NCBI RefSeq assembly: GCF_003334405.1
Contig: NZ_QOWM01000070.1
DNA: 284 bases
Direction: 5' to 3' (one strand)
Origin: Escherichia coli
GTDB lineage: Bacteria; Pseudomonadota; Gammaproteobacteria; Enterobacterales; Enterobacteriaceae
The translations under genes and the position numbers were made by a program. The notes under the pieces were generated by a model that was not told the DNA's origin, did no database searches, and saw only the letters and a program-made list of their open reading frames with translations. The number at the start of each line of letters is the position of its first letter. Position 1 is the first letter of the stretch. Shown piece after piece: positions 1-283 of this stretch.

Positions 1-75
1 GGTCGTTAGCTCAGTTGGTAGAGCAGTTGACTTTTAATCAATTGGTCGCAGGTTCGAATCCTGCACGACCCACCA
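1..75 (+). tRNA. tRNA-Lys (anticodon UUU), 5'-partial: first G of the gene lies outside the window
   Basis: Seen in sequence: 1-75 is identical to 209-283 and matches the E. coli-type tRNA-Lys(UUU) sequence I recognise (GGGTCGTTAGCTCAGTTGGTAGAGCAGTTGACTTTTAATCAATTGGTCGCAGGTTCGAATCCTGCACGACCCACCA). Anticodon loop CUUUUAA at 31-37 with anticodon TTT at 33-35; T-loop TTCGAAT at 53-59 flanked by stem gcagg (48-52) / cctgc (60-64); acceptor 3' strand acgaccc (65-71), discriminator A (72), encoded CCA (73-75). The paralog (lysT/W/Y/Z/Q/V) cannot be assigned because the copies are identical. Confidence 0.96.
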
Positions 76-82
76 ATTTAAA
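76..82 (+). promoter_or_regulatory. AU-rich 3' trailer (ATTTAAA) immediately after CCA; candidate RNase E cleavage site
   Basis: Seen in sequence: atttaaa at 76-82, and the same a follows the second CCA at 284. Established knowledge: RNase E separates polycistronic tRNA precursors by cutting AU-rich single-stranded sequence a few nt downstream of CCA. The assignment to this site is inference. Confidence 0.45.
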
Positions 83-113
83 GGTGGTTACTGGTAGAGA
101 ACGTGAAGGATAA

Positions 114-129
114 CGTTGCGTTAGCAACG
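114..129 (+). other. Hairpin: 6-bp stem cgttgc / gcaacg with GUUA loop
   Basis: Seen in sequence: 114-119 cgttgc is the exact reverse complement of 124-129 gcaacg, with loop gtta at 120-123. An overlapping alternative is taacg (111-115) / cgtta (119-123). Not followed by a T-run, so not an intrinsic terminator. Confidence 0.5.
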
Positions 130-140
130 GCCCGAAGGGC
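130..140 (+). other. Short GC hairpin gccc-gaa-gggc
   Basis: Seen in sequence: gccc (130-133) pairs with gggc (137-140) around loop gaa (134-136). It abuts the previous hairpin and is not followed by a T-run. Confidence 0.4.
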
Positions 141-156
141 GAGACGAAGTCGAGTC

Positions 157-174
157 ATCCTGCACGACCCACCA
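157..174. repeat. Exact 18-nt copy of the tRNA-Lys 3' end (atcctgcacgacccacca) inside the spacer
   Basis: Seen in sequence: 157-174 is identical to 58-75 and 266-283, so the 18-mer occurs three times in direct orientation. The flanking bases differ (c at 156 versus a at 57), which bounds the repeat. Confidence 0.92.
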
Positions 175-207
175 TCCTGAATGATTAAGGCAGCATAATC
201 CCGCAAG

Positions 208-283
208 GGGTCGTTAGCTCAGTTGGTAGAGCAGTTGACTTTTAATCAATTGGTCGCAGGTTCGAATCCTGCACGACCCACCA
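208..283 (+). tRNA. tRNA-Lys (anticodon UUU), complete 76 nt with encoded CCA
   Basis: Seen in sequence: 208-283 is gggtcgttagctcagttggtagagcagttgacttttaatcaattggtcgcaggttcgaatcctgcacgacccacca. Acceptor 5' strand gggtcgt (208-214) pairs with acgaccc (273-279); anticodon loop cttttaa at 239-245 with anticodon TTT at 241-243; discriminator A at 280; CCA at 281-283. Identical to copy 1, so the paralog cannot be assigned. Confidence 0.97.

Follow-up and report, generated by a model that had tools for sequence, protein, structure and literature searches.

What are two adjacent hairpins doing at the centre of a spacer between two tRNA genes, and where do they come from? The stretch of DNA analysed here (284 nt, hereafter the window) consists of two identical tRNA-Lys(UUU) genes and a 132-nt spacer at 76-207, and represents the lysZ–lysQ spacer region of the Escherichia coli lysT tRNA operon. 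It was matched in 5426 of 5426 complete E. coli genomes, the best match being 100% identical, and the annotation at the matching site gives two tRNA-Lys genes; the lysZ sequence (1..75) is identical to 209-284. The original prediction had placed a 6-bp and a 4-bp hairpin next to one another in this spacer, and their sequence is exactly as it described. They sit within a larger element, whose anatomy is collected in the table.

Features of the window, with the evidence for each (all coordinates refer to the 284-nt window)
Feature	Position	Strand	Evidence or remark
tRNA-Lys(UUU) gene lysZ, first base missing at the window edge	1..75	+	Rfam tRNA 71.1 bits, 5'-cut; annotated tRNA-Lys in E. coli genomes
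Whole tRNA-linked repeat (TLR, RtT-like element)	76..174	+	Rfam RtT RF00391, 60.0 bits; strains and species differ in having or lacking exactly this stretch
GGTGG, predicted partner of CCACC (169-173) in the duplicated tRNA end	83..87	+	Consensus fold, 7 copies of this subtype, 4 genera
Closing helix, 5' strand, CGTG-A-AGGAT	102..111	+	Paired with 157-166 in all folds
Hairpin 1, CGTTGC-GTTA-GCAACG	114-129	+	Perfect 6-bp stem (114-119/124-129), GTTA loop 120-123; the <<<<<<____>>>>>> hairpin of the Rfam RtT model
Hairpin 2, GCCC-GAA-GGGC	130-140	+	4-bp stem (130-133/137-140), GAA loop, directly adjoining hairpin 1
Hairpin 3, GAC-GAA-GTC at 143-151 (143-145/149-151)	140..154	+	Has CGAG on either side, as a direct repeat
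Second copy of the last 18 nt of tRNA-Lys (ATCCTGCACGACCCACCA), which doubles as the closing-helix 3' strand	157..174	+	100% identical to 58-75 and 266-283
Ordinary spacer and lysQ 5' leader, outside the repeat	175..207	+	The 33-nt lysZ-lysQ spacer of E. coli Eco889
tRNA-Lys(UUU) gene lysQ	208..283	+	ARAGORN; Rfam tRNA 79.2 bits

The hairpins are real and evolutionarily conserved, yet they form the core of an already catalogued repeat. The Rfam RtT model fits window 7-174 (E = 1.5e-11) with a score above its gathering score of 45 bits, and the score is likewise 60 bits when this copy is taken in its genomic context. In the alignment 114-129 falls on the central hairpin of the model, 130-143 on GCCCGAAGGGCGAG and 157-174 on the model 3' end, which reproduces the consensus order of a central 6-bp hairpin, then gCCCGaAGggCGAg, and an ending in a tRNA 3' end (..CCACCA). 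The element also lies where a TLR should, following lysZ directly and preceding lysQ, both tRNA-Lys genes of the lysT operon, and its last 18 nt are those of the upstream tRNA (18/18 identical), identity of the last 18-19 bp to the upstream tRNA 3' end being the defining TLR feature (PMC8144298). First seen in 1978 by Egan and Landy as the 178-bp repeats of tyrT, TLRs were counted by Rudd in 1999 as 22 at ten E. coli K-12 loci; the 2021 description assigns them 'no known function', and an early claim tying RtT to the stringent response was withdrawn (PMC8144298). Five RtT matches are found in the lysT operon, one after each of lysT, lysW, lysY and lysZ and a longer one past the lysQ terminator. 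The window copy is the one directly after lysZ, and among the five only the long copy after lysQ carries the NCBI annotation 'RtT sRNA'. The hairpins are thus the rediscovered core of an element that is already known, and our literature search returned no study treating the lys-operon spacers as RNAs.

Both hairpins persist when the full precursor is folded, a check that the original prediction had called for: the MFE and centroid structures include them for the spacer alone as well as for the whole window, tRNAs included, and so does the fold of the core 101-167, where that one structure accounts for 51% of the ensemble (z = -3.8). Of 5000 dinucleotide-shuffled spacers, 501 contain a perfect 6-bp hairpin with a loop of 3-8 nt, a frequency at which the 6-bp hairpin by itself is unremarkable; one followed directly by a 4-bp hairpin is found in only 14. 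Across RNA/DNA and sense/antisense comparisons the folding z scores are -3.8, -4.4 and -4.3, the fold being equally significant with DNA parameters, and thermodynamics distinguishes neither RNA from DNA nor one strand from the other. That neither hairpin is an intrinsic terminator was rightly foreseen, with no T-run 3' of either one on the + strand and no terminator-like site on that strand at all; the sole terminator-like match in the window is weak and lies on the - strand (129-114 followed by TTATCCTT), where 0.3 such matches are expected by chance. The decisive support for the hairpins is instead their conservation and covariation among related copies.

A third hairpin and a closing helix, neither of which figured in the original prediction, complete the fold. 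The closing helix pairs 102-105 and 107-111 with 157-161 and 163-166 (CGTG-A-AGGAT with ATCCT-G-CACG) and encloses the three hairpins, an architecture shared by the consensus folds of both subtypes (7 copies from 4 genera in one, 8 copies in the other). Its 5' strand tracks the 3' end of its own tRNA, reading CGTGAAGGAT in Lys-, GGGAGGAT in Arg- and GGGGAAGGAT in Tyr-linked copies, and the Pro-linked copies differ accordingly. The additional pairing of GGTGG with CCACC is confined to the subtype of the window copy, in which a one-sided A-to-G change retains a U.G pair. The CGAG direct repeats around hairpin 3 could add tandem G.A pairs.

Related copies were assembled in two sets. For the enteric set, orthologous operons were located via the flanking gene cpoB in ten Enterobacteriaceae genera, with RtT matches at 7 of the 10 loci, varying in number and position; further copies came from the lysV and proK loci and, by way of phage and plasmid collections, from Yersinia, Providencia, Arsenophonus and the Klebsiella arg operon. 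The resulting 33 distinct cores, aligned with MAFFT, have 92.8% of cells in standard pairs, compared with 21-44% when the partners are slid by 1-3 columns, and their covariation score was reached by 0 of 500 column shuffles. Two-sided variation is seen at three of the three pairs of hairpin 3 (the middle pair being GC in 14 copies, CG in 11, AU in 2, UA in 1 and GU in 1) and at three of the five pairs tested in hairpin 1. In Yersinia the arms of hairpin 1 are swapped (CAACGC/GCGTTG), and long copies have tandem G.A/A.G in place of UU/AA; stems such as CGTTGC/GCAACG, CAACGC/GCGTTG and CGTCGCC/GGCGACG, among others, show that this stem changes with compensation. True orthologues of the lysZ-lysQ spacer, recognised by common flanking sequence, exist in Citrobacter and Kluyvera; here the hairpin 1 stem is kept around loops of GTTA, GTCA or TTTA, and hairpin 3 is GGC/GCC as against GAC/GTC in E. 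coli. Decayed copies are instructive too, one from Klebsiella with CGTTAC/GTAACG as hairpin 1 and one from Salmonella with CGCC-GAAA-GGCG instead of hairpin 2.

The second, more diverse set came from a pattern scan of viral and metagenome collections and holds 134 distinct copies, of whose cells 94.1% are paired in an alignment that was fitted to the structure by a covariance model and leans toward it; again 0 of 500 shuffles reach the score. Two-sided changes occur at 9 of 12 pairs, including five of the five tested in hairpin 1 and three of three in hairpin 3, counted among related and paralogous copies that exchange sequence by gene conversion, so that independent events are fewer than cells. 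The stem of hairpin 1 has G.U pairs in 10 cases and A.C in 1, around a hypervariable loop, an excess that speaks for folding of the single sense strand and not for a protein site on duplex DNA; hairpin 3 has no such excess (4 G.U, 7 A.C). An Atlantibacter copy carries two A-to-G changes in the duplicated end, both retaining U.G pairs, and the other subtype has G.U pairs in its 5' hairpin as well. A scan of genome contigs with CGGCCCGNAGGGCGA, a pattern too unspecific for this purpose, gave chance matches in GC-rich genomes only, among the matches listed. Taken together, the comparisons settle that selection acts on the pairing of hairpins 1 and 3 and of the closing helix.

For the two hairpins first proposed, the comparison of related spacers gives a divided outcome: hairpin 1 keeps its stem through compensation while its loop is free, and hairpin 2 cannot be judged in this way, three of its four pairs (the CCC/GGG core) never varying in the 33 enteric copies and its stem having been fixed by the search pattern in the 134. 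The outer G-C pair is A.C in four enteric copies and G.U in one, and the loops found are GAA, GTA, GCA, GGA, TTA and AAA, with a free middle base. Covariation neither supports nor refutes this near-invariant hairpin, and its invariance suggests sequence-specific recognition as much as pairing. The Rfam model gives the same bases another partner, a long-range helix between a T-loop-like UUCG and CGAA at 133-136. The window copy has no UUCG of its own: it is the short inter-tRNA form, and the Rfam fit takes its 5' part from the real tRNA, T-loop included, across a 43-nt insertion. Where copies possess a UUCG segment, TTCG is unchanged whatever the hairpin 2 loop (GAA in 55, GCA in 17, GGA in 10, GTA in 2). 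Because the UUCG stays constant when the loop base changes, a local hairpin 2 is at least as good a reading as the long-range pairing, a matter that bears on one helix of the model and not on RtT membership.

Where might hairpin 1 have come from? Its suggested descent from the anticodon arm does not survive the comparison, since the same hairpin is found in Tyr-, Arg-, Pro-, Ser-, Gln- and other-tRNA-linked repeats with differing anticodon stems. A Yersinia copy moreover has an intact tRNA-Lys anticodon arm plus hairpin 1 inside the T-loop. Neither ARAGORN nor the Rfam tRNA model detects a tRNA gene or pseudogene cloverleaf in 76-207. We also set aside a coding role for the 25-codon arginine-rich ORF at 103-180, which overlaps the hairpins; the compensatory stem changes fit RNA or DNA structure instead, and its frame differs from that of tpr, the 'protamine-like' ORF of the tyrT repeats.

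How much does the host depend on the element? In E. fergusonii the spacers equal those of E. coli minus exactly one repeat and one 18-nt copy, at three positions, and the long copy is absent together with a 54-bp repeat that includes the terminator. All seven tRNA genes are present in E. coli Eco889, separated by 35, 2, 51, 3, 48 and 33 nt, and no TLR lies among them. By spacer coverage, at least 80% of the lysZ-lysQ spacer is present in only 1996 of 5426 complete E. coli genomes, and in genomes lacking the TLR the window match passes from the tRNA-Lys 3' end straight into the 175..207 stretch (query 82-132). The TLR is dispensable: a natural TLR-free operon in E. coli Eco889, the missing units of E. 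fergusonii and the many genomes without the spacer together mean that it is not essential. It is gained and lost as a block at the 18-nt direct repeat, and the Citrobacter and Kluyvera copies, orthologous in position, hint that loss has been commoner than gain.

What, then, is the pairing selected for? The lysT operon is transcribed as a single polycistronic transcript of ~1100 nt, from which RNase P separates the tRNAs in 3' to 5' order, the long spacers being cut by RNase E only when RNase P is defective (PMC4176162). Our tentative preference, to which we give slightly less than an even chance, is that the TLR is a cis-acting folding module of the sense-strand RNA within the tRNA precursor. 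The repeat would be transcribed with the tRNAs inside the ~1100-nt precursor, where the sense strand may collapse into a compact domain in which the duplicated 18-nt tRNA 3' end pairs with its upstream complement and encloses the three hairpins. Such a fold could lock away the extra copy of the tRNA 3' end and spare the identical neighbouring tRNAs from mispairing with it. It would also give a long spacer a defined shape, leaving as its single-stranded part an A/U-rich linker past the true CCA end, and the spacer would presumably be discarded once RNase P and 3' exonucleases have freed the tRNAs. We infer both that RNA rather than single-stranded DNA is the target of selection and that the module sequesters and insulates. 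It would be helpful at most, with the block coming and going by recombination at the 18-nt direct repeat. Because the E. coli and E. fergusonii operons work naturally without TLRs, any benefit must be small or conditional. A second difficulty is that the same cassette occurs away from tRNAs, within elements bounded by inverted repeats, which a role confined to the precursor leaves unexplained.

It is these wider occurrences that lend weight to another reading, that the cassette is selfish DNA, mobile or formerly so, which enters or recombines at the T-loop to 3' end of tRNA genes, its hairpins being read by a recombinase or transposase in sense single-stranded DNA and the E. coli copies being immobile relics kept by gene conversion. 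The tRNAs that precede the cassette in metagenomes include those for Lys, Arg, Ser, Pro, Gln, Tyr, Thr, Asn, Glu and Val, and in environmental bacteria it follows at least 12 tRNA families. Where an upstream tRNA lies within 700 nt (75 copies, by a hand count from the listing), its last 18 nt are repeated exactly in 51 and at 16-17 of 18 positions in eleven more. About two dozen copies are not linked to a tRNA and lie between inverted repeats of 10-27 nt (such as CGTCATCCCGGCGCAGGCCGGA / TCCGGCCTACGCCGGAATGACG), with both strands represented in one contig; no Rfam family matches them. The Yersinia pseudotuberculosis element is a fifth tRNA-Lys gene, complete but for the cassette lying exactly between the TTCGA and ATCC of its T-loop, and the Rfam tRNA model even scores its 5' part; at one metagenomic locus (L155) a 72-nt cassette interrupts an otherwise complete stand-alone tRNA(CAU) gene at the same site, and Providencia offers a decayed example. 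Long Tyr-, Pro- and Lys-linked copies likewise retain tRNA-specific sequence just upstream of TTCGA. Mobile DNA would also fit the make-up of the hairpins (C-G-closed triloops, GNA for the most part, and tandem G.A pairs), the presence/absence polymorphism with exact boundaries within E. coli, and the significance of the fold under DNA parameters; moreover, 18 nt is a typical length for the att-site repeats of integrases that target tRNA 3' ends.

Set against this, the loci examined have no linked transposase or integrase gene, and the element is far too small to encode one. The E. coli, Citrobacter and Kluyvera copies occupy the same spacers and have acquired their compensatory changes in place, which fits selection at the level of the host, and recombination between the 18-nt repeats is all that precise loss requires. 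Complete T-loop-interrupted tRNAs account for just 2-3 of about 186 copies and could have been produced secondarily by deletion between T-arm sequences. Nearly all matches in the phage and plasmid collections are chromosomal fragments filed as plasmids or phages, and these collections provide no evidence of a phage or plasmid origin. In the window itself no inverted repeats bracket the TLR, as judged by a repeat search with a 6-nt seed and an 8-nt minimum that also missed the 6-bp arms of hairpin 1. On balance, we consider a mobile origin rather unlikely.

A bolder version, and in our judgement an improbable one, would make the three- to four-hairpin cassette an autonomous and widespread bacterial module whose primary home is the tRNA T-loop, between TTCGA and ATCC, with TLR/RtT elements, the window copy included, as the decayed remains of T-loop-interrupted tRNA copies. 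Were this true, an unrecognised mobile element or recombination system would be targeting the T-loop, or else an intron-like insertion would be removed from the tRNA or tolerated in it, an option we raise because the interrupted tRNA(CAU) gene stands alone. The repeats would then record an unknown mechanism aimed at the most conserved sequence in tRNA genes. The T-loop-interrupted tRNAs, the linkage to many tRNAs and the copies bounded by inverted repeats may be new, the older literature lying outside our search.

Could the spacer instead yield a stable small RNA acting in trans, as a sponge for other small RNAs like the leuZ 3' external spacer or as a binder of Hfq or CsrA like the TLRs behind 5S rRNA, with its hairpins protecting it from exonucleases? 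The founding member of the family, annotated rttR at the tyrT locus, can be detected as an RNA of 171 nt. In many environmental copies the loop of hairpin 3 is CAGGATG, which we take to resemble a CsrA/RsmA site. Hfq and CsrA are bound in vitro by the TLRs downstream of rrnA, rrnB and rrnD (PMC8144298), and RtT-family RNAs give Northern signals in Actinobacillus (PMC4986893). At the present locus the evidence runs the other way: Northern probes 10 and 11, which lie in the lysZ-lysQ spacer, detected the full-length transcript only, and only in RNase P mutants (PMC4176162), and these published blots give no sign of a stable excised spacer fragment, one of the roles that had been suggested for the hairpins. 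In a predictor of CsrA binders, the 19 TLRs of tRNA operons score < 0.01 (PMC8144298); the only GGA of the window copy (108-110) is buried in the closing helix, and the loops, usually the seed regions of such RNAs, are the least conserved parts. A trans-acting product is accordingly very unlikely here.

A neutral relic, in the form of a decayed tRNA-Lys duplicate whose hairpins are unselected and whose conservation reflects recent ancestry and gene conversion, would find some comfort in the ease with which the elements are lost and in variants common to the copies within one genome, such as the GGC/GCC of hairpin 3 in all Citrobacter copies. Window 82-106 is also weakly colinear with tRNA-Lys positions 2-31, a similarity reached by 110 of 5000 shuffles and absent in other subtypes. 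The stems, however, are >90% paired across Enterobacteriaceae, Yersinia, Providencia, Arsenophonus and unrelated environmental bacteria while the loops vary freely, and so many two-sided pair changes are unexpected unless pairing is selected; this reading is largely refuted and has little chance of being right. The operator-like DNA palindrome first suggested for CGTTGC-N4-GCAACG is scarcely credible as a binding site on double-stranded DNA: perfect and identical in most enteric copies as it is, its half-sites are elsewhere swapped or replaced by unrelated complementary sequences at spacings of 3 nt to >10 nt, G.U is tolerated and A.C is not, as expected of a folded single sense strand, and no promoter-like site lies near it in what is a constitutively transcribed tRNA operon.

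Taken as given, the finding adds little, the element having been on record since 1978, with a K-12 catalogue from 1999 and an Rfam model. Its added value lies in the selection for pairing seen in hairpins 1 and 3 and the closing helix, in one long-range Rfam helix that has no covariation support, and in the natural dispensability of the unit. A wider question has now become easier to test: why do bacteria ranging from enterics to those of soil and sediment share one hairpin cassette, attached to an exact copy of the 3' end of whichever tRNA is upstream?

Comparison with known systems places the window copy among the TLRs, at a locus whose five copies agree with the published range of 'one to five TLRs per locus' (PMC8144298) and in a form that shows no difference from them. 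With the RtT/rttR units of the tyrT-tyrV 178-bp repeats it has in common hairpin 1, CCCGAAGGG, a hairpin with a GNA loop, then GAGT(A/C)ATCC, the closing helix and an ending that repeats the final 18 nt of the neighbouring tRNA. At tyrT the units are longer (~130 nt of the model, 133-137 bits), carry an extra 5' hairpin and a T-arm-like GGTTCGA, and are located beyond both the tRNA and the terminator. The TLRs behind 5S rRNA (rrA, rrB and rrF), the sole ones with reported binding partners, differ in being without the CCCGNAGGG cassette, of which a pattern scan found none at the rrnB locus. The regulatory RNAs derived from the leuZ 3' external transcribed spacer and the metZWV internal spacers (Lalaouna et al. 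2015, cited in PMC8144298) are likewise by-products of tRNA-precursor processing from between or after tRNA genes, but they are non-repeat and act through single-stranded seeds, whereas the TLR conserves its stems and varies its loops.

Other likenesses are to repetitive and integrative DNA. REP/BIME-type and mosaic repeats are, like the TLR, short, highly structured, GC-rich palindromic intergenic modules, and the NIME units of Neisseria, flanked by dRS3 repeats, are mosaic intergenic repeats that may resemble the cassettes bounded by inverted repeats; in contrast to these, the window copy is without terminal inverted repeats and is tied to a tRNA 3' end, and the loci examined gave no link between the cassette and RAYT-type or other transposases. 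Lastly, the integrases of P4-like elements and genomic islands that target tRNA genes leave direct repeats of the tRNA 3' end as att sites; as with the TLR, the tRNA gene stays intact and is followed by a direct repeat of 16-20 bp that spans its T-loop to CCA end. The TLR departs from this pattern in having only ~80 nt between its repeats and no integrase, and in holding between them a conserved hairpin cassette that is common to many tRNA types.

The hairpin cassette that forms the core of the tRNA-linked repeat (TLR, or RtT) is also found inside tRNA genes, at the T-loop junction between TTCGA and ATCC. In Yersinia pseudotuberculosis, four tRNA-Lys genes precede a fifth, complete one in which a ~64-nt cassette lies between these two motifs; the 5' part of this interrupted gene scores 34.7 bits with the Rfam tRNA model. 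A 72-nt cassette of four hairpins likewise splits the T-loop of a stand-alone tRNA(CAU) gene on metagenome contig Ga0209536_100038466, where no intact copy of that tRNA was found within 330 nt upstream. If this is the sole gene for that tRNA, the insertion would need to be tolerated or removed. In Providencia alcalifaciens, a shortened cassette, comprising only CCC-GTA-GGG and ACC-GAA-GGT hairpins, sits at the T-loop position of a tRNA-Lys-like pseudogene whose anticodon arm has decayed.

Coordinates of the window features and of elements at the compared loci
Feature	Locus	Coordinates	Remark
Interrupted tRNA-Lys	L133, Y. pseudotuberculosis	1120-1262	
Interrupted tRNA(CAU)	L155, metagenome contig	~4920-5270	minus strand, reverse-complement coordinates
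tRNA-Lys-like pseudogene	L134, P. alcalifaciens	877-1000	
~54-bp direct repeat	L001, containing the window	2764-2820; 2922-2978	
TLR break point	L144, IMG/VR provirus contig	~11027-11054	
tRNA-Lys-like segment	window	82-106	
Arginine-rich ORF	window	103-180	plus strand
Terminator-like site	window	129-114	minus strand
CAGGATG/AGGAT third-hairpin loop	L130, Kosakonia	~5250-5300	
Thermometer RNA RF02782	L123-L132	3392-3530	100-153 bits
Thermometer RNA RF02782	L135	1-130	100-153 bits
tRNA-free cassette	L196, metagenome contig	4248-4414	
tRNA-free cassette	L233, metagenome contig	7923-8060	
tRNA-free cassette	L263, metagenome contig	3926-4090	

Within the window itself, GGTGGTTAC-TGGTAGAGAACGTGA is colinear with GGTCGTTAGCTCAGTTGGTAGAGCAGTTGA, positions 2-31 of tRNA-Lys, a weak likeness whose score is reached by 110 of 5000 shuffles, though it fits the idea that the repeat arose from a tRNA-Lys copy and then decayed. 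The hairpins are also spanned by a 25-codon arginine-rich ORF, MKDNVALATARRARRSRVILHDPPS, which differs in frame from tpr, the ORF of the tyrT repeats annotated as 'protamine-like'. The arginine-rich tail of tpr is encoded by a cassette homologous to that of the window, which suggests that tpr may owe its composition simply to the CG-rich hairpins. On the opposite strand, a simple scan finds hairpin 1 followed by TTATCCTT, a weak terminator-like site (0.3 expected by chance) that faces a strongly transcribed operon.

The third hairpin varies in its loop, which is CAGGATG or AGGAT in Kosakonia and in many environmental copies (L168, L196, L209, L228, L236, L240, L263), giving a likeness to a CsrA/RsmA binding hairpin, instead of the GAA of the E. 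coli lys copies. Separately, the CpoB/ybgF thermometer RNA is present at the pal-cpoB junction in every locus fetched, and is unconnected with the window hairpins.

Just beyond the window, a direct repeat consisting of the tRNA 3' end and the entire terminator lies on either side of the long RtT copy that follows lysQ. This unit stands in at least three tandem copies in Atlantibacter (L131) and in a viral-collection locus (L146), an arrangement like that of the 178-bp repeats of tyrT. On the provirus contig, the long TLR 3' of a Val-Val-Val-Lys operon ends abruptly just past GAGTCATCC, at the expected start of the duplicated tRNA end, and this cut-off may reflect integration into the pseudo-3' end. 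Finally, the tRNA-free cassette copies of L196, L233 and L263, which match no Rfam family, lie between inverted repeats, for example GTCATTCCGG/CCGGAATGAC; in layout they resemble MITEs and are reminiscent of the dRS3/NIME units of Neisseria.
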